Made by a program: the position numbers and the translations under genes. Positions 1 through 21,751 of a DNA stretch of 64,000 nt are shown piece after piece. The notes beneath the pieces are model-generated. The model had not been told where the DNA came from. It searched no databases and saw only the letters and a list, made by a program, of their open reading frames with translations. The stretch is from Pseudomonadota bacterium (GTDB lineage Bacteria; Pseudomonadota; Alphaproteobacteria; UBA11222): contig JBMOMX010000032.1 in NCBI GenBank assembly GCA_049323435.1, positions 18,555-82,554 on the forward strand. Direction: 5' to 3'. Numbering within the stretch: the first letter of the stretch is position 1; each line of letters begins with the position of its first letter.

Positions 1-52
1 TGTTTCGGGCAAACTGATTCCGATAAGAAATCACCATCGGAAAGGAAGCCAC

Positions 53-622
53 ATGAAACTGTCAAAACCCCGCATTCAGCCGCTGCCGGAAAGCCAGTGG
101 AGCGCAGAACAGAGGCCCGCATTTGAAGCCGCCAAAAAGGGCAAGAGCGCGATCAGCGACGCGGTCGTGTTCAATGTCATGGGCACGCTTGGCAACCATC
201 CTGAAGCCGCCAAAAAATTCAATGTCTGGGCGTTTCATGTCATGGGCGACAGTTCCACGCTGGGGGCGCGCGAACGCGAAATCCTGATCCTGCGCATCGG
301 CTGGCTGTGCCAGGCGGAATATGAATGGGCGCAGCACGCCGTCATCGGCCGTAAATGCGGCCTGTCGGATGCGGAAATCGCGCGCATCAAGGAAGGGCCG
401 GACGCCAAGGGCTGGAGCGAACTGGACAGCCTGCTGCTGCGCGCAACAGATGAGTTGCACAAGGACGCCTGCATCTCGGACGCGACCTGGAACGGCCTTG
501 CCAAACATTACAACACCCAGCAACTGATGGATGTGGTGTTCGCCGTGGGCCAGTATAATCTGGTGTCGATGGCGCTGAATTCGTTCGGCGTGCAGCTGGA
601 TGAGGGGCTGAAAGGTTTCTGA
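53..622 (+). CDS. carboxymuconolactone decarboxylase (CMD)/AhpD-like family protein, paralog 1
   Basis: 189-aa ORF. Most positions are shared with the two downstream paralogs (MKLSKPRI..PE..W, EREILILRIGWLC.EYEW.QH.V.GR, SDATWNGLAK, QYNLVSMALNSFGVQLDEG.KGF). Size and the conserved Cys/His block fit the CMD/AhpD-like fold; family name is from memory. Confidence 0.65.
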   Translation: MKLSKPRIQPLPESQWSAEQRPAFEAAKKGKSAISDAVVFNVMGTLGNHPEAAKKFNVWAFHVMGDSSTLGAREREILILRIGWLCQAEYEWAQHAVIGRKCGLSDAEIARIKEGPDAKGWSELDSLLLRATDELHKDACISDATWNGLAKHYNTQQLMDVVFAVGQYNLVSMALNSFGVQLDEGLKGF

Positions 623-709
623 TCGCGGCGCAAAAAAGTGCTTTTACAAGTGCTGTGAAACAGGGCAGACTGATCTCTTATAATAAATAATAAGGGGGAG
701 GACGCCGTC

Positions 710-1282
710 ATGAAACTATCGAAGCCGCGCATCAAGCCGTTGGATGAAAGCGAGTGGACGCCGGAACAGGCCAAGACTTTAGGACGTCTCAAGGGCGGCA
801 GCACCGAGTTCGGCGCGAAAATGCATGTCTATAATGTGCTGGGCACGCTGTCGCGCCATCCGGAGGCCAACAAGAAATTCGGCGTCTGGGCCAATCATAT
901 CATGGGGCCGACAAATACGCTGCCGCCGCGCGAGCGTGAAATTCTGATCCTGCGCATCGGCTGGCTGTGCGAGGCGGAGTATGAATGGGGCCAGCATGTG
1001 GTGTTTGGCCGCGCCGTTGGCCTGACGGATGAGGAAATCGCCCGCATCAAGCTTGGCCCCGACGCGCCCGGCTGGAGCGAACATGACGCGCTGCTGCTGC
1101 GCGCCACAGACGAGCTGCGCAAGGACGCCTGTATATCGGATGCGACCTGGAACGGGCTGGCCAAACGCTATAACACGCATCAGCTGATGGATGTGGTGTT
1201 CACCGTGGGCCAGTATAATCTGGTGTCGATGGCGCTGAATTCATTCGGTGTGCAACTGGATGAGGGCGTGAAAGGCTTTTAG
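710..1282 (+). CDS. CMD/AhpD-like family protein, paralog 2
   Basis: 190-aa ORF with a GGGGAGG RBS upstream; collinear and nearly identical in the conserved blocks to the 53..622 product. Confidence 0.65.
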   Translation: MKLSKPRIKPLDESEWTPEQAKTLGRLKGGSTEFGAKMHVYNVLGTLSRHPEANKKFGVWANHIMGPTNTLPPREREILILRIGWLCEAEYEWGQHVVFGRAVGLTDEEIARIKLGPDAPGWSEHDALLLRATDELRKDACISDATWNGLAKRYNTHQLMDVVFTVGQYNLVSMALNSFGVQLDEGVKGF

Positions 1283-1358
1283 TCAGGCCGCCATGCGTCA
1301 TCTCATTCTGCGAAAGGCAGAGGGAAAAAAATAAAAATAAATTGCAGGGAGAAAAACC

Positions 1359-2054
1359 ATGTTGCATCTGTTTTTCACGCGCCTTAGCGCGCTGGCCATA
1401 GCGGGCTTGCTGCTGCTGGGCAGCCCGGCCCCCGCGCAAAGCGCGGACACGGCCGCATCGCAGCACAGCCAGCCGGTGAAAATCCGCCTCTCCGCGCCGC
1501 GCATTCCCCCATTGGCGGAAAGCAAATGGACGGAGGAACAGGCCAAGGTGCTGGGCCCGCTCAAGCAGGGCGCCCCGATGTTTGGCACAGTGTTGAAGGC
1601 GCATAATGTGCTGGCCACACTGGCGCAGCATGAAGAAGCGCGCAAAAAATTTGATGTCTGGGCCAATCATGTAATGGGCGCGACCAACACACTGCCGCCG
1701 CGCGAGCGCGAAATTCTGATCCTGCGCATTGGCTGGCTCTGCCAGTCTGAATATGAATGGGGTCAGCATGTGGTCATTGGCCGGGCCGTTGGCCTGACGG
1801 ATGAGGAAATCGCGCGCATCAAGCTGGGGGCCGAAGCAAAGGGCTGGAGTGCACATGACGCGCTGCTGATCCGCGCCGCCGATGAACTGGACAAGGACGC
1901 GTTTGTATCCGACGCCACCTGGAACGGGCTAGCCAAAACCTATAATACGCAACAGATGATGGATGTGGTGTTCACCGTGGGCCAGTATAATCTGGTGTCG
2001 ATGGCGCTGAATTCATTCGGCGTTCAGCTGGACGAAGGTGTGAAGGGATTCTAG
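1359..2054 (+). CDS. CMD/AhpD-like family protein, paralog 3, with N-terminal signal peptide (predicted periplasmic)
   Basis: 231 aa; N-terminal MLHLFFTRLSALAIAGLLLLGSPAPAQSA is a typical Sec signal (hydrophobic core plus AxA). The remainder is collinear with paralogs 1 and 2 starting at LSAPRIPPLAESKW. Confidence 0.65.
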   Translation: MLHLFFTRLSALAIAGLLLLGSPAPAQSADTAASQHSQPVKIRLSAPRIPPLAESKWTEEQAKVLGPLKQGAPMFGTVLKAHNVLATLAQHEEARKKFDVWANHVMGATNTLPPREREILILRIGWLCQSEYEWGQHVVIGRAVGLTDEEIARIKLGAEAKGWSAHDALLIRAADELDKDAFVSDATWNGLAKTYNTQQMMDVVFTVGQYNLVSMALNSFGVQLDEGVKGF

Positions 2055-2056
2055 CC

Positions 2057-2851
2057 ATGCGTCTGCAAGGCAAGAAGGCCATCGTCATTGGCGCCGGGCA
2101 AACGCCGGGCGAAACCATCGGTAATGGCCGCGCCACCGCCATCCTGTTCGCACGCGAAGGGGCCGAGGTGATGTGTGTCGATAAACGCCTGCAATCGGCG
2201 CAGGATACGGTGGATATGATTATAAATGAAGGCGGCAAGGCCTTTGCCTATGAGGCCGACATCACCAGCGAGCCGGCCAATGTGGCGCTGGTGCAGGCGG
2301 CGCGCGCCAAAATGGGCCGCATCGACATTCTGCATAATAATGTCGGCATCGGCGCGGGCGATGCGCCGCCGCATAAATTATCCGAAGATGTTTATGACCG
2401 GATCATGCTGGTCAATTTAAAGGCCATGTGGCTGACCTGCAAACATGTGATCCCGGTAATGCGGGAACAGAAATCGGGATCGATCATCAATATTTCCTCG
2501 GCTGCGGCGGTGTCATCTGGCGGCATCACGGCCTATGAAATTTCCAAGGCGGGGGTGAACAAGCTGACCCAATCCATCGCCATGACCAACGCCAAATATG
2601 GCGTGCGTTGCAATGTCATCATGCCCGGCCTGATGGATACGCCGATGGCGATCGAAGGCAATGTGGCGGCGCGCGGCATTTCACGCGAAGAGGTGCGCGC
2701 CATGCGCGACCGTATCGTGCCCTTGCGCGGCAAGATGGGAACCGGATGGGATGTGGCCTATGGCGCACTCTATCTGGCGTCGGACGAGGCCAATTTCGTC
2801 ACCGGCGTGGCGCTGCCGATAGATGGCGGCCATGCGGCGAAGGTGGGATAA
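2057..2851 (+). CDS. SDR family oxidoreductase (FabG-like classical SDR)
   Basis: 264 aa; Rossmann motif AIVIGAGQTPGETIG near the N-terminus, NNVG, a catalytic S..Y...K arrangement (YEISKAG), and a C-terminal PIDGGHAAKVG typical of SDRs. Confidence 0.8.
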   Translation: MRLQGKKAIVIGAGQTPGETIGNGRATAILFAREGAEVMCVDKRLQSAQDTVDMIINEGGKAFAYEADITSEPANVALVQAARAKMGRIDILHNNVGIGAGDAPPHKLSEDVYDRIMLVNLKAMWLTCKHVIPVMREQKSGSIINISSAAAVSSGGITAYEISKAGVNKLTQSIAMTNAKYGVRCNVIMPGLMDTPMAIEGNVAARGISREEVRAMRDRIVPLRGKMGTGWDVAYGALYLASDEANFVTGVALPIDGGHAAKVG

Positions 2852-2865
2852 TGCATTGGGAACGT

Positions 2866-2998
2866 CATACGACCCCTCTAATTCGTCATCGCGAGCCGCG
2901 AAGCGGCGTGGCGATCCAGAAGTCAAAAACTCAAGCTTTTCCTTGTGGTTTCTGGATTGCTTCGCCCCCAAAAGAACTGGGGGCTCGCAATGACGGAG
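2866..2998. repeat. MITE/REP-like imperfect palindromic element with termini cgtcat(c/t)gcgagc
   Basis: Left arm cgtcatcgcgagccgcgaagcggcgtggcgatccagaa and right arm ttctggattgcttcgcccccaaaagaactgggggctcgcaatgacgg are imperfect reverse complements. It sits in the 326-bp gap between two SDR genes. The six-frame ORFs across it (2608..3006, 2681..2971) are repeat-encoded artefacts. Confidence 0.55.
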
Positions 2999-3177
2999 AA
3001 AGGTGATTTTTCTTTTTCTTTGGAATGGTGTGATCGGGTTTTTTCAATTTTGACGCATACGGATTCTTGCGGGCCTTCATTTTAGACAAATTGTACTGTT
3101 CTTTCATGGCCGACCACCTAGGTAGCACGCTATTCTTTATAGCAAAAACTGGATAACACATAACAGGGAGAAGTGGC

Positions 3178-4035
3178 ATGAAAGACGTAAAGGGCAAGGT
3201 GGCGTTCATCACGGGTGCGGCCAGCGGCATGGGGCTGGGCATGGCGCGGGCCTTCGGCGCGGCGGGCATGAAGGTGATGCTCAGCGATATTGAGGACAAG
3301 GCGTTACAGGAACAGGTTAATGATCTGAAAGCCAAAGGTTATGACGTGGCCGGCGTCCAGGTGGATGTCACCAAGGAAGAAGCGCTGCATAATGCCGCCA
3401 AAAAAACCATCGAGACTTTCGGCAAGGTGCATGTGCTGTGCAATAATGCGGGCGTAGGCGTAGGCGGCAAAAGCGAGACCTGCGACATGCGCAACTGGCG
3501 CTGGTGCGTGGATGTCAATATGTGGGGTGTCGTCTATGGCTTGCAGGCGTTCGTGCCGCTGATCAAATCACATGGCGAAGAGGGCCATGTGGTCAGCACC
3601 GCTTCGATGGCCGGGATGTACGGGGTGCGCAATCTTGGCCCCTATAATGCGGCCAAGTTCGCCGTGGTCGGCATTATGGAAACCATGATGGCGGAAAACA
3701 AGAACACCAATATGGGCGTCTCTGTGTTGTGCCCCGGTGCGGTCGCCACCAATATCGGCAATTCCACCCGCAACCGGCAGCAGGAATATGGCGGCGCTGC
3801 GGCCCCCAGCACCATGGACATCACCAATGAGGCATTGGCGCAAGGCCTGCATCCCGATGTGGTCGGCAAACAGGTGCTGGAGGCGATCCTGAAAAACCAG
3901 CCCTATATTTTCACCGATCCCAATATGCGCAAAATGATTGAATCGCGCTTTCGCAAGATCCTGTCCGGCTATGACTGGGCCGATAGTTGCGATGCGCTGG
4001 CGGGCGTCAAGCAGGGCAGTTTGCAGCGGTCTTAA
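3178..4035 (+). CDS. SDR family oxidoreductase, LigD/LigL-like subfamily, tandem paralog 1 of 4
   Basis: 285 aa; MKDVKGKVAFITGAASGMGLG, NNAG, GPYNAAKFAV (Y-x3-K), and a C-terminal extension (PYIFTDP...GYDWA) shared by all four paralogs. CAGGGAG RBS upstream. Confidence 0.85.
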   Translation: MKDVKGKVAFITGAASGMGLGMARAFGAAGMKVMLSDIEDKALQEQVNDLKAKGYDVAGVQVDVTKEEALHNAAKKTIETFGKVHVLCNNAGVGVGGKSETCDMRNWRWCVDVNMWGVVYGLQAFVPLIKSHGEEGHVVSTASMAGMYGVRNLGPYNAAKFAVVGIMETMMAENKNTNMGVSVLCPGAVATNIGNSTRNRQQEYGGAAAPSTMDITNEALAQGLHPDVVGKQVLEAILKNQPYIFTDPNMRKMIESRFRKILSGYDWADSCDALAGVKQGSLQRS

Positions 4036-4079
4036 CATAAGCTCCGTCAACGGAGCAATCAGCGGGAGAAAGACAAAAA

Positions 4080-4952
4080 ATGAAGGACGTAAAAGGTAAA
4101 GTGGCGTTCGTCACGGGCGCCGCCAGCGGCATGGGGCTTGGCATGGCGCGCGCCTTTGCCGAGGCGGGCATGAAAGTGATGCTGGCCGATATTGAGGCGG
4201 GGCCGTTGCAGCGCGAAACCGGCGCGCTGAAGGCCAAAGGCTATGATGTGGATTGCGTGCAGCTGGATGTCACTAAAATGGCGGATGTTCATGCGGCTGC
4301 GAAAAAAACCGTGGACCGCTTCGGCAAGGTGCATGTGCTCTGCAATAATGCCGGCATTGGCGTGTTCGGAAAAAGCGAAACCGCCAATATCAAAAACTGG
4401 CAATGGGTGGTGGATGTCAATCTGTGGGGCGTCGTCTACGGGTTGCAGGCCTTTGTGCCGCTGATCCTCTCACATGGCGAAGGCGGGCATATTGTCAGCA
4501 CATCCTCCATGGCGGGCATGGTGGGCTTGAGCGGCGCGGGGCCCTACAATGCCACCAAATTCGCGGTAGTCGGCATTATGGAAACCATGATGGCGGAAAA
4601 CCGCAAGAGCAATCTGGGCATCTCTGTGCTGTGCCCGGGCGCGGTGGCGACCAATATTTCCACCTCCACCCGCAACCGGCAGGATGAATATGGCGGTGCC
4701 GCGCCGCCTAGCTCCAAGGAACGCATTGCCGATGTGCTGGCGCAGGGCCTGCATCCCGATGTGGTGGGCAAACAGGTGCTGGAGGCGATTATCGACAACC
4801 AGCCCTATATTTTCACCGATCCCGCCATGCGCAAAATGATTGAATCGCGTCATAAACGCCTGATGGCGGGCTATGACTGGGCCGACAGATGCAAGGCGCT
4901 GTCCGGCCAGAAACAGGCAGGCGGTATCCCCGGCGGCATCTTGAAGGAATAG
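4080..4952 (+). CDS. SDR family oxidoreductase, LigD/LigL-like, tandem paralog 2
   Basis: 290 aa; collinear with 3178..4035 and most residues identical. Confidence 0.85.
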   Translation: MKDVKGKVAFVTGAASGMGLGMARAFAEAGMKVMLADIEAGPLQRETGALKAKGYDVDCVQLDVTKMADVHAAAKKTVDRFGKVHVLCNNAGIGVFGKSETANIKNWQWVVDVNLWGVVYGLQAFVPLILSHGEGGHIVSTSSMAGMVGLSGAGPYNATKFAVVGIMETMMAENRKSNLGISVLCPGAVATNISTSTRNRQDEYGGAAPPSSKERIADVLAQGLHPDVVGKQVLEAIIDNQPYIFTDPAMRKMIESRHKRLMAGYDWADRCKALSGQKQAGGIPGGILKE

Positions 4953-5077
4953 CGGCGCGCTTGACCTGCTGTCAGGATTAGGCAAAGCTGCGGCAACAAT
5001 AATTGCGGGGCGTGAGCAAAAGCCCCGCTTCACATCAGCACAGGGAGGCGTCTGTAACAACAGGCGGCGCAATCAGC

Positions 5078-5950
5078 ATGAAAGACGTAAAGGGAAAAAC
5101 AGCCTTCATCACTGGCGGCGCCAGCGGTATGGGGCTTGGCATGGCGCGCGCCTTTGCCGAGGCGGGCATGAAAGTCATGGTCGCCGATATTGAAGCCGAA
5201 GCGGCCAAACGCGCGGCGGCTGAATTGACCGGCAAGGGCCATGAAGCCGCCTGGGTGCAGGTGGATGTCACCAGTCTGGACGCCATGAAGGCGGCCGCGC
5301 AGAAAACTGTGGATACTTTCGGCAATGTGCATGTGCTCTGCAACAATGCCGGCATCGGCGTGTTCGGGCACAGCGAAACCTGTGACATGCGTAACTGGCA
5401 CTGGGTGGTGGATGTCAATCTTTGGGGCGTGGTGCATGGGCTACAGGCCTTTGTGCCGCTGATGCTCGCGCATGGCGAACCCTCCCATGTCTCCAGTACG
5501 GCATCAATGGCCGGCATGGCGGGACTGCGCGGCGCGGGGCCATACAATGCCACCAAATTCGCCGTGGTGGGCATCATGGAAACCTTCGCGGCCGAACATC
5601 GCAAGGATAATATCAGCGCCTCGGTGCTGTGCCCGGGTCTGGTCGCCACCAATATCGCCAGCTCCACCCGCAACCGGCAGGACAAATATGGCGGCGCGGC
5701 AAAAGCCAGCGACAAGGGCATTTCCGCTGCCGAGCTGGCCAAGGGGTTGAACCCCGACGCGGTCGGGCGCGAGGTGCTGGAGGCCATTCTGGAAGATCAG
5801 TTCTATATTTTCACCGATCCCAGCCTGCGGCACATTGTCGAAACCCGCAGCAAGCGTATCCTTCAGGGCTATGACTGGGCGGCAAACTGTAAATCGCTGA
5901 AAGGCGAAAAGCAGGCCGATGGGTTGCCCGGCGGCCTGTTGACGAAATAA
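5078..5950 (+). CDS. SDR family oxidoreductase, LigD/LigL-like, tandem paralog 3
   Basis: The track ORF 5003..5950 has an N-terminal extension. I place the start at the ATG at 5078 because MKDVKGKTAFITGG aligns with the starts of the other paralogs and an RBS-like cagggagg lies upstream. Confidence 0.8.
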   Translation: MKDVKGKTAFITGGASGMGLGMARAFAEAGMKVMVADIEAEAAKRAAAELTGKGHEAAWVQVDVTSLDAMKAAAQKTVDTFGNVHVLCNNAGIGVFGHSETCDMRNWHWVVDVNLWGVVHGLQAFVPLMLAHGEPSHVSSTASMAGMAGLRGAGPYNATKFAVVGIMETFAAEHRKDNISASVLCPGLVATNIASSTRNRQDKYGGAAKASDKGISAAELAKGLNPDAVGREVLEAILEDQFYIFTDPSLRHIVETRSKRILQGYDWAANCKSLKGEKQADGLPGGLLTK

Positions 5951-6006
5951 GCAATAATCACAATCCAGCAAGGGAGGCGTCTGCTTTGGCGGGCGGTAAA
6001 AACAGT

Positions 6007-6864
6007 ATGAAAGACGTAAAAGGCAAAGTGGCGTTTATTACCGGGGCGGCCAGCGGCATGGGCCTGGGCATGGCCCGGTCCTTCGCTGCGGCAGGCATGA
6101 AAGTGATGATCGGCGATATTGAACTGGCCCCCGCCCAGCGCGCCGTGGACGAGTTGAAAGCCAAGGGGCTGGAGGCCGCCTGTGTGCAGGTCGATGTCAC
6201 CAGTCTGGAATCGGTGCAGAACGCCGCCAAAAAAACCGTGGACACGTTCGGCAAGGTGCATGTGATCAGCAATAATGCCGGTATCGCGGTCGGCGGATAC
6301 AGTGAAACATGCAGTATCCGCAACTGGAACTGGGTGGTGGATGTCAATTTGTGGGGCGTTGTGTACGGCTTGCAGGCTTTTGTGCCGCTGATCCTGTCAC
6401 ATGGCGAAGGCGGGCATGTGATCAGCACCGCCTCGATGGCGGGCATGGTCGGGTTGCGCGGCGCGGGCCCCTATAACGCCACCAAATTTGCGGTTGTCGG
6501 CATCATGGAAACTTTCGCAGCCGACCATCGCAAGGATAATATCGGCGCATCCGTGCTGTGCCCCGGCGTGGTGGCCACCAATATCGGCAATTCAGGCCGC
6601 AACCGGCCCGATCAATATGGCGGCGCGGTTGCGCCCAACCCGCGCGACCGGACGGCGGAAATGCTGGCGCAGGGCCTTAATCCCGATATTGTCGGCGATC
6701 TGGTGCTGGAAGCCATGCAGGCCGATCAATTATATATCTTCACCGATCCAGGCCTGAAACATCTGATCGAAACCCGCTGCAAGCGTATCACCGACGCCTA
6801 TGACTGGGCCGCCAACAGCAAATCACTGAAAGGCGTGAAACAGTCAGGCCTGCTGCCGGGATAG
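6007..6864 (+). CDS. SDR family oxidoreductase, LigD/LigL-like, tandem paralog 4
   Basis: Track ORF 5986..6864; start placed at the ATG at 6007 (MKDVKGKVAFITGAASGMGLG). The upstream leader agggaggcgtctg is shared with paralog 3. Confidence 0.8.
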   Translation: MKDVKGKVAFITGAASGMGLGMARSFAAAGMKVMIGDIELAPAQRAVDELKAKGLEAACVQVDVTSLESVQNAAKKTVDTFGKVHVISNNAGIAVGGYSETCSIRNWNWVVDVNLWGVVYGLQAFVPLILSHGEGGHVISTASMAGMVGLRGAGPYNATKFAVVGIMETFAADHRKDNIGASVLCPGVVATNIGNSGRNRPDQYGGAVAPNPRDRTAEMLAQGLNPDIVGDLVLEAMQADQLYIFTDPGLKHLIETRCKRITDAYDWAANSKSLKGVKQSGLLPG

Positions 6865-6924
6865 GGTGTATCGGCGCCGGATTTTTTCTTCTGAGCGCCG
6901 TCTGCCTTTGCTCTGCGAGCTAAG

Positions 6925-7022
6925 GGCTGACCCCCACCCCGGCCCTCCCCCTTTCAGGGGGAGGGAGTCCTTGCGTCTGGCGTCCCCTCCCCTTGAAAAG
7001 GGGAGGGACAGGGAGGGGATCA
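6925..7022. repeat. REP-like nested-hairpin element, family A (ccctcccc...ggggaggg)
   Basis: gacccccaccccggccctccccctttcagggggagggag ... tcccctccccttgaaaaggggagggacagggaggggatc, with two short perfect hairpins inside a larger imperfect palindrome. A second copy lies at 18713..18848. Confidence 0.7.
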
Positions 7023-7112
7023 ACGGGTTAACGTAAAATCATCACGCTATAGTTAGAAAAAATCCGTCTAAAGAAATTCCGTCCAGGGATCATTACGTAA
7101 CAGGAGAAGAGC

Positions 7113-8003
7113 ATGAAAGTCGGCTTTATCGGCATCGGCAATATGGGCGGCCCGATGTGCCGCAATATTATCAAGGGCGGCCATGATGTGACCGTGTTCG
7201 ATCTGAACCCGGCGGCGGTCAAAACATGCACCGATCTGGGCGCAAAGGCGGCGGCCTCACCCAAAGAGGTGGCGTCTCTGGTGGATGTGGTGATGACCTC
7301 GCTGCCGATGCCAAAGGATGTGGAGGCGGTGGCGCTCGGGCCAAACGGCATCATCGAGGGCATTCGTCAGGGGACGATATATATTGATCTGTCCACCAAT
7401 TCGCCGACCATGATCCGTAAAATCGCCGCCGCGTTTGCACCAAAGGGCGTGGTCACGCTGGATGCGCCGGTGTCGGGCGGCGCGATCGGCGCGGAAAAAA
7501 AGACCATCGCCATTATGGTGGGCGGCGACAAGGCGGCCTATGACCGCTGCATGCCCGTCTTTGAAAGTTTCGGGCAGAATATTTCGTTCCTGGGCGCGCT
7601 CGGCAGCGGCGCCATCGCCAAGATAGTCAATAATATGCTGGCTTTCAGCAATATGGCGTCGGCCGCCGAAGGGCTGATGCTGGGCGCTGCGGCGGGGATT
7701 GATCCCGAAGCCCTGAATGAGGTTATCCGCAACAGTTCCGGCAACAGCATGGCCTATCGCGGCGTCGCGCACAAAACGCTGAACGGCGACTGGTCGGCGA
7801 CCTTCACCATTGATCTGGCCTATAAGGATCTGCATCTGGCGCTGGAGCTGGGCGATGAGCTGGGCATCCCGCTGCCGCAGGGCGCGCAGACGCATAATCT
7901 GATGCGCATGGCGCGCGGCATGGGCTTTGGAGGTGATGACGCCACCGCGATCATGCGTGTCTATGAAAAAACACTGGGACGGGAAATACGCAAAAAAAAA
8001 TAA
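7113..8003 (+). CDS. NAD(P)-dependent oxidoreductase, 3-hydroxyisobutyrate dehydrogenase (HIBADH)/2-hydroxy-3-oxopropionate reductase family
   Basis: 296 aa; N-terminal MKVGFIGIGNMGGPM dinucleotide-binding motif, and the length and architecture of the 6PGDH-NAD-binding beta-hydroxyacid dehydrogenase family. Confidence 0.85.
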   Translation: MKVGFIGIGNMGGPMCRNIIKGGHDVTVFDLNPAAVKTCTDLGAKAAASPKEVASLVDVVMTSLPMPKDVEAVALGPNGIIEGIRQGTIYIDLSTNSPTMIRKIAAAFAPKGVVTLDAPVSGGAIGAEKKTIAIMVGGDKAAYDRCMPVFESFGQNISFLGALGSGAIAKIVNNMLAFSNMASAAEGLMLGAAAGIDPEALNEVIRNSSGNSMAYRGVAHKTLNGDWSATFTIDLAYKDLHLALELGDELGIPLPQGAQTHNLMRMARGMGFGGDDATAIMRVYEKTLGREIRKKK

Positions 8004-8018
8004 TCGCGGGGCACACAG

Positions 8019-9353
8019 GTGAACACTGATAATGGGCCGGAGAAAACCGGCCTGATCCCTGCGGATTTGCCGGTGGTGTATCGCACCGGCTATGTCCGGT
8101 ATGTCGTCGGCATACTGACCGTCGTATATGTTTTCAATTTCATGGACAGGCAGATCCTGTCGATCCTGATGCAGCCGATCAAGCAGGAAATGCAGCTTAG
8201 CGACACCGAGCTGGGCTTTCTTGGCGGGGTCGCCTTTGCCATATTTTACGCGACCCTGGGCGTGCCGATTGCACGGCTGGCGGATCAATATTCGCGGGTT
8301 AATCTGATCACCATCTGTCTGGGCCTGTGGAGCTGTATGACCGCGCTGTCGGGCCTGGCGGCGAATTTCATGCAATTGCTGGCGGCGCGCATCGGGGTGG
8401 GCATTGGCGAGGCGGGCGGCGGCCCATCATCGCATTCGCTGATTTCGGATTATGTGCCGGCCCAAAACCGCTCCACGGCGCTGGGCGTGTTTGCGCTGGG
8501 CGTGCCGATCGGGCTGATGGTGGGTTTTCTGGCGGGCGGCTGGCTCGAAGAAAATTATGGCTGGCGGGTGGCGTTTATGGCGGCGGGCATTCCGGGTCTG
8601 ATTCTCGCCGTCATTCTGCGGCTGACGGTGCGTGAACCCAAACGCGGCCATTCGTCGGGCGAGACGGACATCATCCATGCAGATCAACCCTCGATGAAGC
8701 AGGTGGCCAACCATATGCGCGCCATCCGCACCTTCCGGCTGCTGGCCATTGCCGCCGCGATGCAGGCCTTTGCGGGCTATGGCCTGATCCAGTGGCTGCC
8801 CAGCTTCCTCACCCGCAACCATCAGATGAGCAGCACGGATATCGGCTTCTGGCTGGCGATGACGATTGGCGCGGGCGGCGCGATCGGCACGATGGGCGGC
8901 GGTTATTTCGCCGATCTGCTGTCGCGTAAAAATCTGGCCTGGCAATTATGGCTGCCGGGCATAGGCAGCCTGTTGGGCGCCTTTATCTCGTTCGGCATAA
9001 TGCTTTCACCCGGCATACCGGTGCTGCTGTTTTTTGTGTTTCTGCATTCGGTGGCGGTCAATGCCTATCTCGGCCCGTCTTTTGCGGTGACGCAAACTTT
9101 GTCGCCTGTGCGGATGCGCGCGCTGGCCAGCGCGCTGCTGCTGTTCGCGATCAATATTGTTGGCCTCGGGCTTGGGCCGCAAATGGTGGGCGCGCTAAGC
9201 GATCTGCTGCGCCCGGCTTTAGGCGATGAATCGCTGCGTTACGCCATACTGGCGGGGTGCATGACCTATTTTGTGGCGGCGCTGTTTTTCGCTTTGGCGG
9301 GGCGTGCGGCGCGCGTGGATTTTGCAACTGCGGCGCGGCTGGCGGGGGATTAA
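8019..9353 (+). CDS. MFS transporter, tandem paralog 1 of 3
   Basis: 444 aa and highly hydrophobic; MFS signature around PIARLADQYSR and GVGIGEAGGGP. Collinear with the next two ORFs. Confidence 0.85.
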   Translation: MNTDNGPEKTGLIPADLPVVYRTGYVRYVVGILTVVYVFNFMDRQILSILMQPIKQEMQLSDTELGFLGGVAFAIFYATLGVPIARLADQYSRVNLITICLGLWSCMTALSGLAANFMQLLAARIGVGIGEAGGGPSSHSLISDYVPAQNRSTALGVFALGVPIGLMVGFLAGGWLEENYGWRVAFMAAGIPGLILAVILRLTVREPKRGHSSGETDIIHADQPSMKQVANHMRAIRTFRLLAIAAAMQAFAGYGLIQWLPSFLTRNHQMSSTDIGFWLAMTIGAGGAIGTMGGGYFADLLSRKNLAWQLWLPGIGSLLGAFISFGIMLSPGIPVLLFFVFLHSVAVNAYLGPSFAVTQTLSPVRMRALASALLLFAINIVGLGLGPQMVGALSDLLRPALGDESLRYAILAGCMTYFVAALFFALAGRAARVDFATAARLAGD

Positions 9354-9368
9354 CGGGGGATTGGATCA

Positions 9369-10670
9369 TTGATCAGCAAGGCGCAGACTGAATCCGGCAA
9401 TCCGGTGGTATATAGCCGGGGCTATGTCAATTATGTCATTGGCGCGCTGGCGATGGTCTATCTCGTCAATCTGACCGACCGTCAAATCCTTGCCATTCTG
9501 ATGCAGCCGATCAAGGAGGAAATGCAGCTTTCCGACACCGAGCTGGGTTTTCTGGGCGGCATCGCCTTCGCAATTTTTTATTCGACCCTCGGTCTGCCGA
9601 TTGCGCGGCTGGCGGATAAATATTCCCGCGTCAAAATTCTGTCTGTCTGTCTGGCCTTATGGAGCGTCATGACGGCGCTGTGCGGTCTGTCGTCGAATTT
9701 CTGGCAGTTGCTGGCGGCCCGCATCGGCGTGGGCGTCGGCGAGGCCGGCGGCAGCCCGCCATCGCATTCGCTGATCGCCGATTATGTTCCGGTGGAAAAG
9801 CGCGCCACCGCCATCGGTCTGTTCGCCGTCGGCGTGCCGCTTGGCCTTTTGTCGGGCTATCTGCTGGGCGGCTGGCTGGAGGAATTATATGGATGGCGGG
9901 CGGCGTTCATGGCCATCGGGCTGCCGGGCCTGATTGTGTCCCTGATTGTGTGGCTGACCGTGGAAGAGCCGCCGCGCGGAAATTCGCAGGGCGGCGTGAA
10001 GGTGCAGGCGGAAACACCGCGCATCATGGCGGTGGTGCGGCATATGTCGGCCGTGCCATCCTTTCTGCATCTATCGCTGGCGACCGCCATGCAGGGCTTC
10101 GCCACTTATGGCATCTATCAGTGGATACCCAGTTTCATGTCGCGCAGCTATCAGATGCAAAGCGGCGAAATAGGCAGCTGGCTGGCGCTGGTGATTGGCG
10201 TGAGCGGCTTTTTCGGGACTATCCTGGGCGGCTATTTCGCGGATGCCCTGTCGCGCCGCGACATGCGCTGGCAGATGTGGCTGCCGGGCCTGTGCATGTT
10301 GCTGGCGCTGCCCGCATGCCTTGGCATGTATCTTTCTTTCGGGCTGTATCTGTCCATGTTCTTTCTCGCGCTGGTGGTTTTTCTCGTGAATGTATGGCTT
10401 GGACCCGGACTGGCCATCACCCAGACGCTGGCGCCGGTGCGGATGCGCGCCATGGCCAGCGCACTGCTGCTGTTTGTGCTGAATATTATCGGCCTTGGCA
10501 TGGGGCCGCAGGCGGTCGGCATCATGAGTGATCTTCTCGCGCCCGCCTATGGCCAGGAATCGCTGCGTTATGCCCTGCTGATTTCCAGTTCTTTTTACCT
10601 TTGGTCGGCGTATCATTTCTGGAAAGCAGCTGTAACCCTGAAACCGGACCTGAAACAGGCGATAGAATAA
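9369..10670 (+). CDS. MFS transporter, tandem paralog 2
   Basis: 433 aa; the same conserved blocks (DRQILAILMQPIKEEMQLSDTELGFLGG, ARLADKYSR, GVGEAGGSPPSHSLIADYVP). The apparent start codon is TTG at 9369. Confidence 0.8.
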   Translation: MISKAQTESGNPVVYSRGYVNYVIGALAMVYLVNLTDRQILAILMQPIKEEMQLSDTELGFLGGIAFAIFYSTLGLPIARLADKYSRVKILSVCLALWSVMTALCGLSSNFWQLLAARIGVGVGEAGGSPPSHSLIADYVPVEKRATAIGLFAVGVPLGLLSGYLLGGWLEELYGWRAAFMAIGLPGLIVSLIVWLTVEEPPRGNSQGGVKVQAETPRIMAVVRHMSAVPSFLHLSLATAMQGFATYGIYQWIPSFMSRSYQMQSGEIGSWLALVIGVSGFFGTILGGYFADALSRRDMRWQMWLPGLCMLLALPACLGMYLSFGLYLSMFFLALVVFLVNVWLGPGLAITQTLAPVRMRAMASALLLFVLNIIGLGMGPQAVGIMSDLLAPAYGQESLRYALLISSSFYLWSAYHFWKAAVTLKPDLKQAIE

Positions 10671-10692
10671 ATATAATAACAAGGGGGAAAAC

Positions 10693-12021
10693 ATGACCAG
10701 CCTTGACGAGGACGGCGCCGCAACGGCCGCGCTGGTGCCCGCACATGAACCGGCGGCGCATTTCAGCAAACCCTATATCAATTATGTCATCGGCATGCTG
10801 ACGGTGGTTTATGCGGTCAATCTTATCGACCGGCAAATTCTGTCGATCCTGATGCAGCCGATCAAGCAGGAGATGCAGCTTTCCGACACGGCGCTGGGAT
10901 TTTTATCCGGCATCGCCTTTGCGATGTTTTACGCCACGCTTGGCATACCGATTGCCCGGCTGGCGGATAAAAGTTCGCGGGTGAATATTATTTCCATCAG
11001 CCTGGCGCTATGGAGCTTTATGACGGCGCTGTGCGGCGCAGCACAGAATTTCTGGCAATTGCTGGCGGCGCGCATTCTGGTCGGCGTGGGCGAGGCGGGC
11101 AGCGGGCCTTCCTCACATTCGCTGATCGCCGATTATGTGCCGCTGGAGACACGCAGCTCCGCGCTGGCGATTTATTCGCTGGGCATTCCCATCGGCATTA
11201 TGATTGGTTTTTCGGTTGGCGGCTGGCTGGAGCAGTTATATGGCTGGCGTATTGCGTTCATGGCCGTGGGTGTACCCGGTCTTATACTGGCGGTCATTGT
11301 CCGTCTGACATTGCGCGAGCCGCCGCGCGGCCATGCAGATGGCGTGGCGCGGGCGGATAAAGCCGAACAGCCGCCGCTGCGCGAAGTCGCCAGCACCATG
11401 TGGAAACGCAAATCCTTCCGTCATCTGGTGACGGCGATCGGCATTCAGGCCATTTCGGGCTATGGCGTTCTGATCTGGGTGCCAAGCTTTCTGCATCGCA
11501 GCTATCATATGACCAGCGCCGAGGTTGGCACGGCCTTGGCGCTTATTCTTGGCATTGGCGGCATCATCGGCACGGCGGCGGGCGGCTATCTGGCCGACCA
11601 TCTGGCAAAGCGCACGGTGCGCTGGCAATTATGGATACCGGCGCTGGGGGGCCTGGTGGCGGTGCCGTTTAGTTTCGGGACTTATCTTTCCGGCACAGCC
11701 TTTGCCACACTGGCCTGGTTTGCGGTGCCGATCATTTTCGCCAATCTGTATCATGGCCCGGTATTCGCCATGGCGCAGGCGCTGGCGCCGCTTAGAATGC
11801 GCGCCATGGCCGCGGCGATCCTGTTATTCATGAGCAGCTTTGTCGGCATGGGCATCGGACCGCAACTTGCGGGCATTATCAGCGATTTGCTCGCACCCGC
11901 CTATGGCGCGGATTCGCTGCGCTATGCGCTGCTGTGTATTTCCATGGCGCATATATGGTCGGCGGCGCATTTCTGGCTGGCGTCAAAAACCTTGCAGGAG
12001 GACTTGGCGATTGCGCAATAA
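10693..12021 (+). CDS. MFS transporter, tandem paralog 3
   Basis: 442 aa; same blocks, with a GGGG RBS upstream. Confidence 0.85.
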   Translation: MTSLDEDGAATAALVPAHEPAAHFSKPYINYVIGMLTVVYAVNLIDRQILSILMQPIKQEMQLSDTALGFLSGIAFAMFYATLGIPIARLADKSSRVNIISISLALWSFMTALCGAAQNFWQLLAARILVGVGEAGSGPSSHSLIADYVPLETRSSALAIYSLGIPIGIMIGFSVGGWLEQLYGWRIAFMAVGVPGLILAVIVRLTLREPPRGHADGVARADKAEQPPLREVASTMWKRKSFRHLVTAIGIQAISGYGVLIWVPSFLHRSYHMTSAEVGTALALILGIGGIIGTAAGGYLADHLAKRTVRWQLWIPALGGLVAVPFSFGTYLSGTAFATLAWFAVPIIFANLYHGPVFAMAQALAPLRMRAMAAAILLFMSSFVGMGIGPQLAGIISDLLAPAYGADSLRYALLCISMAHIWSAAHFWLASKTLQEDLAIAQ

Positions 12022-12063
12022 TAGGGGCATAATAGCAGCCCATAACCGCAGGGAGAAGAAACC

Positions 12064-12354
12064 ATGAGCCTCGGAGTCATCGCAAAGATCAAGATACAGC
12101 CCGGCAAGAATGCCGAGTTTGAACAGATATTTTCTGAACTGGCGGCAGCCGTGCGCAAGAACGAGCCGGGCAATAATTTTTATGCCCTGCACAAATCCAA
12201 AACCGATCCGCAACTTTATGTGGTGCTGGAAAATTACAAGGATGCGGCGGCCTTTGCCGCACACCGCGAATATCCGCATTTCAAGGAAGGCGGCAAGAAA
12301 ATGGGCGCCTGCATGGCCGGCGCGCCCGAAGTCGAATTGCTCGACGGCGTTTAA
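12064..12354 (+). CDS. antibiotic biosynthesis monooxygenase (ABM) domain protein, putative quinol monooxygenase, paralog 1
   Basis: 96 aa; ABM-like ferredoxin-fold size, with conserved NEPG...YALHKSKTDPQ.YVVLENY...AH..SPHF. Confidence 0.65.
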   Translation: MSLGVIAKIKIQPGKNAEFEQIFSELAAAVRKNEPGNNFYALHKSKTDPQLYVVLENYKDAAAFAAHREYPHFKEGGKKMGACMAGAPEVELLDGV

Positions 12355-12384
12355 ACCTCATCTAACACCAGCAAGGAAGCAAAA

Positions 12385-12675
12385 ATGACGATAGGAATCG
12401 TAGCGAAACTGAAAGTGGCGCCAGGCAAGAATGCCGAGTTTGAGGAGATTTTCTCCGTACTGGCGCGCGCCACCCGCAAGGATGAGCCGGGCAATAATTT
12501 TTATGCCCTGCACAAATCCAAAACCGATCCGCAAACCTATGTGGTTCTGGAAAATTACAGGGACCAGGCAGCGGTCGATGCGCATATGAGCTCGCCGCAT
12601 TTTCAGGCCGGTTTCAAACAAATGGGCGCATGTCTTGCGGGCGCGCCGGAAATCGAATTTCTCGACGGCGTCTGA
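12385..12675 (+). CDS. ABM domain protein, paralog 2
   Basis: 96 aa; collinear with and near-identical to 12064..12354 in its conserved blocks. Confidence 0.65.
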   Translation: MTIGIVAKLKVAPGKNAEFEEIFSVLARATRKDEPGNNFYALHKSKTDPQTYVVLENYRDQAAVDAHMSSPHFQAGFKQMGACLAGAPEIEFLDGV

Positions 12676-12685
12676 TCAGCCTGTT

Positions 12686-12740
12686 GACCGGTGACAGTAT
12701 AGTTTTAATTTCCCGTAATTGATAAATACCGTCACCGGTC
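12686..12740. terminator. 15-bp inverted repeat (1 mismatch) with a ~25-nt AT-rich spacer between convergent genes; candidate bidirectional terminator or protein-binding site
   Basis: gaccggtgacagtat ... ataccgtcaccggtc, located between the ABM gene (+) and the ubiH-like gene (-). Confidence 0.35.
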
Positions 12741-12771
12741 AGTCTCAAAAATCCTGCCTGTATAATGTTTT

Positions 12772-14010
12772 TTACAATGGCAGGCCGGTCAGCAGGCGCG
12801 GCAGGCTGCCCACCTCGCCCGCTGCGTGGCGCATGGCCAGACGGCGCAGCGGGCCGATCTGTCCAGTCAGGCCTATGCCAATATCCCGGGCCAGCCGCAC
12901 CCAGGGCGTATCATTGGAAAACAGCCGGTTGAGTATATCCGTCACCGCAGCCAGGCTGACATTGTCAAAGCGCCGCCACGCCTGATAGCGCGCCAGCACG
13001 CTAGCGGCGCCGATATCCAGCCCCAGCCGGTGCGCATCCACCAGCACCTCTGCCAATGCAGCCACGTCACGCAATCCCAGATTCAGCCCCTGTCCGGCGA
13101 TCGGATGGATCGTATGGGCTGCATCTCCCGCCAGCACCAGACGCTGCGCAACATAGTCACGGGCATGATGGAAGGATAAAGGATAGACCCAGCGCGGCCC
13201 TTCAACATGAATATCACCCCACTGGCTGCCGAAGCGGGCGCGCAATTCGGTCTCAAAATCCGCCTGCGCCAGCGCCATCAGGGCCTTGGCGCGCGCGCCG
13301 GGTTCGGTCCAGACCAGCGAGGATCGCTGTCCTGTCATGGGCAGAATTGCAAACGGCCCGCCGGGCAGAAAATATTCATGCGCCAGACCGCCATGCGGAC
13401 GGGCATGGTGCACCGTGGCCACGATGCCCGACTGGCCATAATCCCATGCGACGGACCTTATCCCAGCCCCCGCACGCAACAGGGAATCCCGGCCATCTGC
13501 GGCAATACACAAGCGTCCATAAAGCAGGCTGCCATCGGACAAACGCACGGCAATCCCGCCCGCATCCGGCACAGCCGATACGGCCCTGCTTTCGCCGCGC
13601 ACGCGAATGGCGGGCACATCGCTTATGCCCGCATGCAGGACGCTTCGAAAAAACCGGTTTTCCAGAATATAGCCGAGCGGCCCGCCGGAAATATCCCCTA
13701 CCCCGTCAAGATGATCGAAATGCAGGCTGAGCGGCGAGGCGCCCCGGCCCAGACGGCCATCACTTACCATGATATCCAGAATGGGTTGCGCCCCGCTGAC
13801 CAGTTGCGGCCAAATCCCCAGCGCGCTCATCAGCCGTACCGAGGCGCGGCCAAGCGCCGAAACCCGCCCGTCAAAAGCCGTGTCCAGCACGGTTTGCACA
13901 GGGGTTGCATCCAGCACCAGCACTGACAGTCCCGCCCGGCCCGCCGCAAGGGCAAAGCTCAGGCCAACCATGCCGCCGCCAACCAGAATGATGTCTGCAT
14001 CAAATTGCAT
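12772..14010 (-). CDS. ubiH: FAD-dependent ubiquinone biosynthesis hydroxylase, UbiH/UbiF/VisC/COQ6 family
   Basis: 412 aa; N-terminal DIILVGGGMVGLSFALA (GxGxxG FAD fold) and the full-length architecture of the aromatic-ring hydroxylase family. Confidence 0.8.
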   Translation of the reverse strand: MQFDADIILVGGGMVGLSFALAAGRAGLSVLVLDATPVQTVLDTAFDGRVSALGRASVRLMSALGIWPQLVSGAQPILDIMVSDGRLGRGASPLSLHFDHLDGVGDISGGPLGYILENRFFRSVLHAGISDVPAIRVRGESRAVSAVPDAGGIAVRLSDGSLLYGRLCIAADGRDSLLRAGAGIRSVAWDYGQSGIVATVHHARPHGGLAHEYFLPGGPFAILPMTGQRSSLVWTEPGARAKALMALAQADFETELRARFGSQWGDIHVEGPRWVYPLSFHHARDYVAQRLVLAGDAAHTIHPIAGQGLNLGLRDVAALAEVLVDAHRLGLDIGAASVLARYQAWRRFDNVSLAAVTDILNRLFSNDTPWVRLARDIGIGLTGQIGPLRRLAMRHAAGEVGSLPRLLTGLPL

Positions 14011-18712: not shown

Positions 18713-18848
18713 GCTGACCCCCACCCCGGCCCTCCCCCTTTCAAGGGGAGGGAGTCTCCCAACGCAGCTTTTATATATTTATAAAAACCATTGTCAGCCC
18801 CAGAATTCCCTCCCCTTGCAAAGGGGAGGGCCAGGGAGGGGATCAGGT
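18713..18848. repeat. REP-like nested-hairpin element, family A, second copy with an AT-rich internal insert
   Basis: ctgacccccaccccggccctccccctttcaaggggagggagtc ... tccctccccttgcaaaggggagggccagggaggggatca; same arms as 6925..7022. Confidence 0.7.
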
Positions 18849-20820: not shown

Positions 20821-20832
20821 TTTGCCTGGTCC

Positions 20833-21639: not shown

Positions 21640-21751
21640 CGATTTACAGGGGTACTTTTTATATTACGCTAAATATATGCAGTATTTTGGCCGGCCGGGC
21701 AATCAAAAACCGCAAATTTCCAATCCCCGGCCGGGTTAATCGCGCAACCGC

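Follow-up and report, generated by a model that had tools for sequence, protein, structure and literature searches.

Among the closest characterised or solved relatives of the genes described here are the C-alpha dehydrogenases LigD (4Y98), LigO (4YA6) and LigL (4YAE) of Sphingobium sp. SYK-6 and the LigO homologue Saro_0793 (3IOY) of N. aromaticivorans, which belong to the same SDR subfamily; LigN is a further C-alpha dehydrogenase of SYK-6. The roles of the catalytic and cofactor residues are taken from the LigL structures, in which Arg222 is a substrate contact essential for GGE turnover, the R222A variant being inactive (PMC4858972). Active members of the 'GGE-dehydrogenase clade' span 28-67% identity (PMC4651090), and in SYK-6 the genes ligD (SLG_08640), ligL (SLG_33660), ligO (SLG_35880) and ligN (SLG_35900) form no tandem array (PMC12997858). 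A second described system concerns translation initiation: in phage T4 genes 25 and 38 the Shine-Dalgarno (SD) sequence lies 27 and 22 nt from the AUG, and a hairpin leaves an effective 11 and 5 nt (PMC3014915).

Here we describe four SDR genes, S1-S4, which lie in tandem and in the same orientation (+) in a window of 64 kb, the whole stretch of DNA that was analysed. The host is an uncultured alphaproteobacterium. The four genes are as follows:

3178-4035, + strand: S1, a 285-aa NAD-type classical SDR with an ordinary proximal SD, GGGAGAAG, at 3163-3170
4080-4952, + strand: S2, a 290-aa SDR paralogue
5078-5950, + strand: S3, a 290-aa SDR paralogue, real start ATG 5078
6007-6864, + strand: S4, a 285-aa SDR paralogue, real start ATG 6007

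Two upstream starts were rejected in favour of these ATG codons, namely the TTG at 5003, which opens the longest ORF of S3, and the TTG at 5986, the choice of the gene callers for S4. All four proteins match Pfam adh_short (E 1e-47 to 1e-49), and among NCBIfam models PRK06194 fits them best, with 250-255 bits where its cut-off is 308. The sequence at the N-terminus is MKDVKGK(V/T)AF(I/V)TG(A/G)ASGMGLG, Y156-x3-K160, N114 and S143 are invariant, and the C-terminal motifs (P/F/L)YIFTDP and (G/A)YDWA are both found; the coordinates, common N-terminus, Y-x3-K pair and C-terminal extension given for these ORFs in a first-pass annotation were all confirmed. Across 48 family sequences N114, S143, Y156, K160, D37 and P186 are invariant.

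The same annotation called the genes LigD/LigL-like, a description that holds at the level of the subfamily. Four of the six solved structures nearest to the window SDRs are LigD, LigO, LigL and Saro_0793, at 30-40% identity. Their E-values were 1e-37 to 1e-51 (1e-37 to 1e-49 for the Lig structures), and the best generic SDR in the search with S1 reached 5.5e-33. The best Foldseek matches (TM 0.75-0.83) were 5ig2, 3tjr, LigL, Saro_0793, LigD and LigO, with values of 0.75-0.79 for the Lig and Saro_0793 chains. These enzymes and the window SDRs have in common the classical fold, the TGxxxGxG motif, the N-S-Y-K tetrad (N114, S143, Y156 and K160 align with N115, S144, Y158 and K162 of LigL), an NAD-favouring Asp at the end of beta-2 (the invariant D37, which corresponds to D36 in LigL, D37 in LigD and D38 in LigO), a Pro before the lid (Pro186 in the window), a long flexible lid and a C-terminal helical extension.

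Below the level of the subfamily, the relation to the Lig enzymes is loose. The window SDR family forms a separate clade with 100% support and no Lig enzyme inside, in trees built without LigN and the SG61-1L enzymes; in a small tree it grouped next to the Lig enzymes as their sister, with 53% support only, and this relation was gone after 128 cluster representatives were added, which left the backbone without support. More than 140 clusters (50% identity) of uncharacterised proteins outscore every Lig enzyme against the window family, and the Lig enzymes are 39-45% identical among themselves versus 30-40% to the window family. Two other structures, 3TJR (the Rv0851c orthologue of M. avium paratuberculosis) and 5IG2 (Burkholderia phymatum), are as near as the Lig enzymes or nearer: they are 36-39% identical to the window SDRs, are the top Foldseek matches (TM 0.80-0.83) and carry the same C-terminal extension. 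Since 3TJR, 5IG2 and PRK06194 have no known function, they add no functional information. The position aligned to LigL Arg222, in a lid whose alignment is uncertain, is A, D, E or T in the window family; the aligned residue is Ser in LigD, so that Arg222 does not mark the family as a whole. Neither a GST or beta-etherase (LigE/F/P) gene nor one for a lyase was found in the 64-kb window or among the annotated recurrent neighbour families in 81 related loci.

It is unlikely, on this evidence, that S1-S4 are a stereospecific set of the LigD/L/N/O type that oxidises the benzylic alcohol of beta-aryl-ether (GGE-type) lignin dimers. Their 30-40% identity does fall within the range of active members of the 'GGE-dehydrogenase clade', four conserved paralogues would suit four stereoisomers, and a more distant pair of the family adjoins an aromatic-type cluster of Rieske oxygenase, PdxA and FAA-hydrolase genes. 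These points and the common residues are set against the separate clade, the equally close or closer uncharacterised relatives, the replaced Arg222, the lack of partner enzymes in the window and among the annotated neighbours, and the hosts, which are aquatic uncultured MAGs and not sphingomonads. The first-pass argument that multiple paralogues are the hallmark of the beta-ether pathway is weak, the lig genes of SYK-6 not being in tandem.

The gene context is that of an island of 12.6 kb, conserved in about 10 MAG species with variable copy numbers and composed of old paralogue sets: 3 CMD, 1 other SDR, the 4 SDR, 1 beta-hydroxyacid dehydrogenase, 3 MFS and 2 ABM genes. Its further members in the window are:

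53-2054, + strand: three tandem CMD-family genes, 68-78% identical
2057-2851, + strand: an unrelated 264-aa SDR (adh_short_C2)
7113-8003, + strand: a beta-hydroxyacid dehydrogenase (HIBADH / tartronate-semialdehyde-reductase type)
8019-12021, + strand: three tandem MFS transporters, 55-60% identical to each other
12064-12675, + strand: two tandem ABM-domain proteins, 72% identical

The island starts directly after dnaJ in a near-identical contig (L003) and in L085, and in the window it ends just before a ubiH-like hydroxylase gene. The 264-aa SDR is the commonest neighbour of S-family members (25 of 81 loci). The best NCBIfam matches of the MFS transporters are the D-galactonate and aromatic-acid:H+ symporter subfamilies, and no PDB relative of the island CMD protein was found; the CMD, ABM, HIBADH-like and MFS neighbours are, like the SDRs, uncharacterised proteins.

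Pairwise comparison of S1-S4 gave 65-73% protein identity, with dS of about 0.7-1.05 and dN/dS of 0.18-0.29; the copies are not near-identical. Each paralogue forms its own clade (96-100% bootstrap), and its orthologues occur, with the order kept, in about 10 other uncultured MAG species. The full order S1-S2-S3-S4 with 1:1 orthologues (80-97%) is present in L007, L008, L009, L013 and L085, and partial arrays in L011, L014-L016 and L020. Identity is 82-94% for the S1 orthologues of L007-L013 and L085 and 83-97% for those of S2, and gammaproteobacterial MAGs contain S2-S4 and S1-S4 pairs. These comparisons establish S1-S4, at sequence level, as anciently duplicated paralogues that have each been retained. 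The title of the first-pass annotation spoke of recent tandem duplication; 'recent' was there an inference and not an observation, and the dS values together with orthologue clades across species and classes contradict it.

A late origin, by recent tandem duplication or recent gene conversion, would explain the similarity of the genes together with an identical element in the S3 and S4 leaders. The 64-kb window contains exactly two copies of the 13-mer AGGGAGGCGTCTG (5042-5054 and 5971-5983), where shuffling gives 0.04 expected matches and none of 100 shuffles reaches two, and in both leaders it starts exactly 36 nt before ATGAAAGACGTAAA. Copy number also differs between species, and one further identical stretch is found within the genes:

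4131-4177, + strand: 47-nt tract in S2, identical to 5129-5175 in S3 and not shared by S3 orthologues elsewhere, possibly a short gene-conversion tract

We give such a recent event almost no credence. Every pair has a dS of 0.71-1.05, with S3-S4 at 1.05, and the same four lineages recur in the other species; S3 and S4 have no long identical tracts (longest exact run 20 nt), and their leaders differ outside the SD and stem. The 13-mer, which comprises the SD and the 5' arm of a hairpin, is equally conserved in the orthologues of S3 and of S4, which points to constraint and not to recency.

With respect to function, sequence comparison establishes the uncharacterised S1-S4 clade as NAD+-type classical SDRs in which the C-terminus is extended by helices and the substrate lid is long and flexible. 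The AF2 model (pLDDT 88.8) has a low-confidence lid at 191-222. By analogy with SDR chemistry, each enzyme would use NAD+ to turn a secondary alcohol into a ketone, Tyr156 acting as the base, Ser143 holding the hydroxyl, Lys160 and Asn114 forming the proton relay and Asp37 keeping NADP out. The likely role of S1-S4 is to oxidise, with NAD+, several related substrates that are imported into the cell. Within orthologue groups 26 positions are fixed that differ between groups, subject to the uncertain alignment of the lid, and they are concentrated at 94-96, 148-153, 170-174 and 201-219. Because these residues cluster in pocket-forming segments, each of the four copies may be adapted to its own substrate within a related group, such as stereoisomers or congeners of organic acids that the cell imports. 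Functionally redundant isozymes retained for dosage would also have intact catalytic residues and similar lengths, as all four proteins do, yet purifying selection on four orthologue lineages across species and classes is unexpected for redundant copies, and the group-specific differences fall in pocket and lid segments; we therefore consider redundancy very improbable.

The following elements lie between the genes of the array and after its last gene:

4041-4056, + strand: S1-S2 intergenic hairpin GCUCCG-UCAA-CGGAGC (-10.6 kcal/mol, z -3.3)
5005-5028, + strand: GC-rich hairpin GCGGGGC...GCCCCGC past the S2 stop, without a T run
5042-5048, + strand: S3 distal SD AGGGAGG, 29 nt between SD and ATG
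5049-5066, + strand: S3 leader hairpin CGUCUG(U)-loop-(A)CAGGCG, then an 11-nt tail (5067-5077)
5971-5977, + strand: S4 distal SD AGGGAGG, 29 nt between SD and ATG
5978-5995, + strand: S4 leader hairpin CGUCUGC-UUUG-GCGGGCG, then an 11-nt tail (5996-6006)
6865-6888, + strand: terminator-like hairpin with T run, directly 3' of the S4 stop

The S1-S2 hairpin lies upstream of the proximal SD of S2 (GGGAGA, 4064-4069) and is conserved in S2 orthologues, and orthologous arrays keep the GC-rich hairpin behind both S2 and S3. The leaders of S3 and S4 have no proximal SD. They are identical at 24 of 36 positions by direct count, a similarity that spans the SD, both hairpin arms and the spacing and is thus not limited to the ribosome-binding site. 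Since the SD-hairpin-tail module is also found in S3/S4 orthologues and in more distant family members, the earlier proposal that the duplication unit included the leader stands. Both leaders are predicted to fold into a 7-bp stem with a tetraloop, although the fold of the S4 leader alone is barely more stable than that of shuffled sequences (z -0.75). Pairing within the hairpin is 100% across 17 distinct S3/S4 leaders, with two-sided changes at two pairs; strict column-wise covariation is modest (2 pairs).

In the wider family 42 of 117 leaders, about a third, from alpha- and gammaproteobacterial MAGs, have a distal SD only. Of 30 representatives, 25 have a hairpin that begins at most 2 nt from the SD and is followed by a tail of 8-12 nt, against 3.0 expected from shuffles, a test that overstates independence because the leaders are phylogenetically related. 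The stems are completely different between clades, and RNAalifold gave no single consensus across clades because they sit in different registers. The GGAG-to-ATG spacing is 27-38 nt as such and 9 or 12 nt once the hairpin is subtracted; ordinary leaders of the family have 5-9 nt. No conserved alternative start or uORF was found in the leaders, an in-frame alternative start being present in only 2 of 19.

In layout, the S3/S4 leader is similar to the split ribosome-binding site of T4 gene 25. By analogy with that gene, S3 and S4 may be translated from a split site, in which the 18-nt hairpin would loop out the RNA between AGGGAGG and ATG and leave an 11-nt spacer. A different function, as an mRNA processing or stability element or the site of a translational regulator that sets the relative output of the internal genes, is a lesser but real possibility. 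Every intergenic region of the array has a hairpin (4041-4056, 5005-5028, 5049-5066, 5978-5995), hairpin leaders precede internal genes while the gene that comes next to the upstream SDR has only a plain SD, and the effective spacing of 9-12 nt exceeds the family norm. On the other side, loop and stem sequences vary between clades, which argues against sequence-specific recognition by a protein, and the fixed position of the hairpin (0-2 nt after the SD, tail 8-12 nt) matches the prediction of a spacing function; moreover, the distal SD is not replaced by a proximal SD or an alternative start. Spacing and processing or regulatory functions are not mutually exclusive.

Taken together, we consider it probable that S1-S4 are ancient, retained NAD+ SDR paralogues, specialised for related substrates and located in a conserved island, of which S3 and S4 are translated via a split ribosome-binding site. 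A broader proposal is rather doubtful: the island may represent a catabolic module not described before, from uncultured Alpha- and Gammaproteobacteria of aquatic habitats, whose paralogue sets (4 LigD-related SDR, 3 CMD, 2-4 MFS, 2 ABM) would handle stereoisomeric or congeneric hydroxy compounds, possibly derived from lignin or DOM, without a beta-etherase, the internal genes using a split SD/hairpin initiation site inherited along with the gene family. If this were true, the arrangement of T4 gene 25 would have a cellular counterpart that spans a whole gene family.

The analysis sets right an annotation that is attractive but lacks support, 'lignin beta-ether dehydrogenases, recently duplicated'; 30-40% identity to LigD-type enzymes does not put a protein in the beta-ether pathway. 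S1-S4 are a clear case of four tandem paralogues retained over the long term in an island of multiplied functions. Such multiplied functions are typical of organisms processing mixtures of related compounds, so that the island can reasonably be chosen for substrate screening. More unusual than the array itself is the leader: if its SD-hairpin-tail works as in T4 gene 25, it would be a natural, repeatedly conserved bacterial split ribosome-binding site. The leader also accounts for the wrong starts assigned to these genes by gene callers.

In comparison with known systems, the locus differs from the Lig systems in that the Arg222 of LigL is not kept, no GST partner was found in the window or among the annotated neighbours, the hosts are others and so is the gene context, and S1-S4 stand in a four-gene tandem array, which the lig genes of SYK-6 do not. 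As in T4 genes 25 and 38, the SD of S3 and S4 is too far from the AUG (29 nt versus 27 and 22), the hairpin lies wholly between SD and AUG and leaves a comparable spacer (11 nt versus 11 and 5), and the structure is kept among relatives while its sequence varies. Unlike the phage genes, the module of the window is found in cellular catabolic genes and recurs, with unrelated stems, in roughly one in three leaders of a single gene family.

The array consists of four tandem SDR genes, each of which matches the Pfam family adh_short with E values of 1e-47 to 1e-49:

3178-4035, plus strand, S1, SDR gene (Pfam adh_short)
4080-4952, plus strand, S2, SDR gene (Pfam adh_short)
5078-5950, plus strand, S3, SDR gene (Pfam adh_short)
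6007-6864, plus strand, S4, SDR gene (Pfam adh_short)

The aligned proteins share the N-terminus MKDVKGK(V/T)AF(I/V)TG(A/G)ASGMGLG, the pair Y156-x3-K160 and the C-terminal motifs (P/F/L)YIFTDP and (G/A)YDWA. Alignment and Pfam thus agree with the first-pass annotation on the four SDR reading frames and their place, N-terminus, Y-x3-K pair and C-terminal extension. PRK06194 was the best NCBIfam model for all four, with a score under its cut-off. The array is a real, ordinary-looking and well-conserved set of old SDR paralogues.

The duplication had been described as recent, which is refuted by pairwise dS values of 0.71-1.05 (near saturation; dN/dS 0.18-0.29) and by the finding that each paralogue has its own orthologue clade elsewhere. 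Pairwise identity among S1-S4 is 65-73% for protein and 70-76% for nucleotides. Several metagenome assemblies carry near-identical copies of the window, and among genomes sampled at one per GTDB species 266 relatives were found, every one in uncultured metagenome-assembled genomes (MAGs). In a tblastn survey of related loci, the order S1-S2-S3-S4 was kept in L007, L008, L009, L013 and L085, whose genes are 80-97% identical to their own window counterpart; partial SDR arrays were found in L011, L014-L016 and L020, and S2-S4 or S1-S4 pairs in Porticoccaceae, Pseudomonadales and other gammaproteobacterial MAGs. S1, S2, S3 and S4 each formed a separate orthologue clade in a neighbour-joining (NJ) tree (bootstrap 96-100%). 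These clades and the conserved order across species show that the duplications predate the separation of the MAG species sampled.

The sole hint of later exchange among the copies is a 47-nt tract that is identical between S2 (4131-4177) and S3 (5129-5175), genes with an overall nucleotide identity of 73%. The S3 orthologues of other MAGs differ within this tract, and it suggests a short gene conversion from S2 to S3. The S1, S2 and S4 orthologues in MAGs labelled as Gammaproteobacteria (L012, L017, L021 and L024; Porticoccaceae, Pseudomonadales) have 82-86% protein identity to the alphaproteobacterial ones, a level that suggests transfer between the classes.

The genes had also been called LigD/LigL-like, after the C-alpha dehydrogenases of Sphingobium sp. 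SYK-6. By sequence, the best PDB matches of S1 were 3tjr (1.6e-50), 5ig2, 3ioy, LigO (4ya6, 1.6e-43), LigD (4y98, 2.6e-43) and LigL (4yae, 5.6e-41), and the seventh match fell to 5.5e-33; for S3 the order was 3ioy, LigO, LigD, 3tjr, 5ig2 and LigL. The entry 3ioy corresponds to Saro_0793, the homologue of LigO in N. aromaticivorans. The structures nearest to the AlphaFold model of S3 (pLDDT 88.8; the lid at 191-222 is of low confidence) were the same six, with TM scores of 0.75-0.83. The window SDRs are 33-38% identical to LigO, 33-36% to LigD, 30-32% to LigL, 38-40% to Saro_0793, 36% to 3tjr and 36-39% to 5ig2. Among themselves the Lig enzymes share 39-45% identity, whereas the window SDRs reach 30-38% to them; likewise, the matches of LigO to LigD, LigL and Saro_0793 score 199-231 bits, and those of S1 and S3 to LigO 152-172 bits. 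In an alignment of 48 family sequences, with features named from the LigL structures, the catalytic tetrad, the NAD-favouring Asp and the Pro before the lid are invariant, whereas Arg222, essential in LigL, is not conserved.

The window family formed a clade with 100% support in a small NJ tree, in which its sister relation to the Lig group had only 53% support. A search among 1.84 billion cluster representatives gave 1,683 clusters at E<=1e-30, of which the best 150 (189-445 bits) all ranked above every Lig enzyme, with LigD, LigO and Saro_0793 at 170-178 bits. When 128 representatives were added to the tree, the smallest clade holding both the window family and the Lig enzymes comprised 80 of the 144 sequences and had no support. 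What stands of the earlier label is that Lig enzymes are among the six nearest PDB structures; a specific affinity is not supported, given the separate clade, the unsupported sister relation and the 150 closer clusters. Sequence comparison places S1-S4 and the Lig enzymes in one large SDR subfamily and does not demonstrate that S1-S4 are Lig orthologues; their own clade is uncharacterised and is related to the lignin C-alpha dehydrogenases at the subfamily level. The four lig dehydrogenase genes of SYK-6, unlike S1-S4, do not form a tandem array. A literature search combining Porticoccaceae, SDR and lignin found nothing relevant. The cluster search also returned P0121-P0123, proteins of 541-574 aa with two SDR stretches each, both ~41-45% identical to S3, which are either natural tandem-SDR fusions or read-through gene calls.

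At twenty-six alignment positions the residue is fixed inside each orthologue group and varies from group to group. The clusters of such positions are at 94-96 (the site equivalent to LigL Asp95), at 148-153 just before the catalytic Tyr, at 170-174 and at 201-219 in the lid. Together with purifying selection and long retention, these group-specific positions support the view that S1-S4 may differ in substrate or stereo-preference.

The array lies within an island with the following gene order:

53-12675, three CMD genes, one unrelated SDR, S1-S4, one HIBADH-type dehydrogenase, three MFS and two ABM genes

In L003, a near-identical contig, and in the related locus L085, dnaJ directly precedes the island; in the window, a ubiH-type hydroxylase gene lies just beyond the island's end. 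Its paralogue sets (CMD, SDR, MFS and ABM) are all old, with identities of 68-78% for the three CMD, 55-60% for the three MFS and 72% for the two ABM copies, and copy number varies across MAG species (CMD 1-3, SDR 3-4, MFS 2-4, ABM 1-2). The third CMD-family protein (1359-2054) has a hydrophobic, signal-peptide-like N-terminal extension of ~40 residues that the first two copies lack, and may be a periplasmic version. The CMD protein had no match in PDB, and the ABM protein and the other island SDR matched only uncharacterised or generic PDB entries. The best NCBIfam matches of the MFS proteins were the D-galactonate and aromatic-acid:H+ symporter subfamilies. Recurrent neighbours in 81 related loci were the other island SDR (25 loci), enoyl-CoA hydratase (18), family III CoA-transferase (12), MFS (11), HIBADH (11), aldo-keto reductase (10) and CMD (9). 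One distant family pair adjoins a cluster of Rieske oxygenase, PdxA and FAA-hydrolase, and another a GMC oxidoreductase and a thiolase/DUF35 pair. No GST was found in the 64-kb window or among the annotated (commonest) neighbour clusters of the 81 loci. The gene context suggests that organic acids, possibly aromatic or alicyclic, are catabolised, and does not specifically indicate a beta-etherase route.

Within the 326-nt spacer before S1 (2852-3177) lie a palindromic element of 112 nt (2884-2995) and, on the minus strand, an ORF of 58 aa that is called in near-identical contigs. The corresponding spacer is ~27 nt in L008 and similarly short in L013 (read from the leader sequence), so that the window seems to contain an insertion. 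Downstream of S4 (6928-7022), two copies of a REP-like G/C-rich hairpin unit, CCCTCCCCTTGMAAAGGGGAGGGMCAGGGAGGGGATCA, make a palindrome with 38-nt arms; the unit recurs at ~18808-18848. A GC-rich hairpin without a T run, GCGGGGC...GCCCCGC (5005-5028), lies 3' of the S2 stop; it is also present 3' of S3 in other MAGs and has been lost from the short 56-nt S3-S4 spacer of the window. The remainder of the window consists of housekeeping DNA including parAB, gidAB (rsmG/mnmG) and mnmE. At 18919-23882 the minus strand encodes a CysN/CysC-type fusion, a PAPS_reduct-family protein, a sulfotransferase and a porin, which together resemble a sulfation module with no relation to the array. The set parB, parA, rsmG, mnmG and mnmE at 29546-41829, with rho further on, suggests a position near the chromosomal replication origin.

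The window has two copies of AGGGAGGCGTCTG, at 5042 and 5971, compared with 0.04 expected from shuffles, and both start 36 nt upstream of ATGAAAGACGTAAA; the repeat in the S3 and S4 leaders is therefore correctly observed and is not a chance match. In both leaders the only SD-like sequence is AGGGAGG, ending 29 nt before the ATG, and it is followed directly by a predicted 18-nt hairpin and then by an 11-nt A-rich tail:

5049-5066, plus strand, S3 leader hairpin, CGUCUG(U)-loop-(A)CAGGCG
5978-5995, plus strand, S4 leader hairpin, CGUCUGC-UUUG-GCGGGCG

Across 17 distinct leaders of S3/S4 orthologues, every one of the six stem pairs is intact (100% of cells), with wobble changes and, at two pairs, changes on both sides; sliding the partner column lowers pairing to 24-59%. 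Among 117 distinct family leaders, 50 have a normal proximal SD and 42 a distal SD only. A hairpin of at least 5 bp, starting at most 2 nt from the SD and followed by an 8-12-nt tail, was found in 25 of 30 representative distal leaders (3.0 expected from shuffles), with stems wholly unlike between clades (for example CCGGC/GCCGG, GGCGGGC/GCCUGCC, CGCUGGC/GCCAGCG). A strict pattern search recovered only S3 and S4 in the window, plus two chance matches; in the other loci 34 of 84 matches were family gene starts, and most others look like chance inside coding sequence.

Support for the structure rests on the within-clade pair count and the per-sequence shuffle test. RNAalifold gave no consensus structure for 20 leaders of different clades, because their stems sit in different registers, and the covariance model R1 recovered 39 leaders with divergent stems forced into insert columns, so that its pair counts add little to the within-clade count. 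An Rfam scan of 1-14000 at E<=1 had no match in the leaders; its sole matches were chance hits of miRNA models on the palindrome at 6931-7019, formed by the CCCTCCCCTTGMAAAGGGGAGGGMCAGGGAGGGGATCA units. Neither an alternative start nor a uORF proved to be conserved. The candidate starts TTG 5003 (S3) and TTG 5986 (S4) were rejected as not conserved, and the leader match at L008:7921 is the first CMD gene's ordinary SD and not an SDR leader that lacks the hairpin. Gene callers and the longest-ORF rule lengthen S4 to 292 aa (TTG 5986) and give S3 or its orthologue a length of 313-315 aa (window, L001, L002 and L085); in these wrong starts the distal SD appears to mislead gene callers.

GGAG and ATG are 5-9 nt apart in the family's ordinary leaders and 27-38 nt apart in those with a distal SD, where subtracting the hairpin leaves 9 or 12 nt. 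A role of the leader hairpin in mRNA processing or regulation is conceivable, though less likely. The proposal that the duplication unit included the leader holds, in the form of an SD-hairpin module kept in the S3/S4 orthologues and in the wider family. The identity of AGGGAGGCGTCTG in the two leaders does not reflect young copies: the sequence comprises the SD and the 5' arm of a hairpin under constraint. This leader, resembling a split ribosome-binding site, is the most unusual feature of the array and is inherited with the gene family. Its closest known counterpart is the split ribosome-binding sites of phage T4 genes 25 and 38, in which 27 nt are cut to 11 and 22 nt to 5, respectively (PMC3014915).
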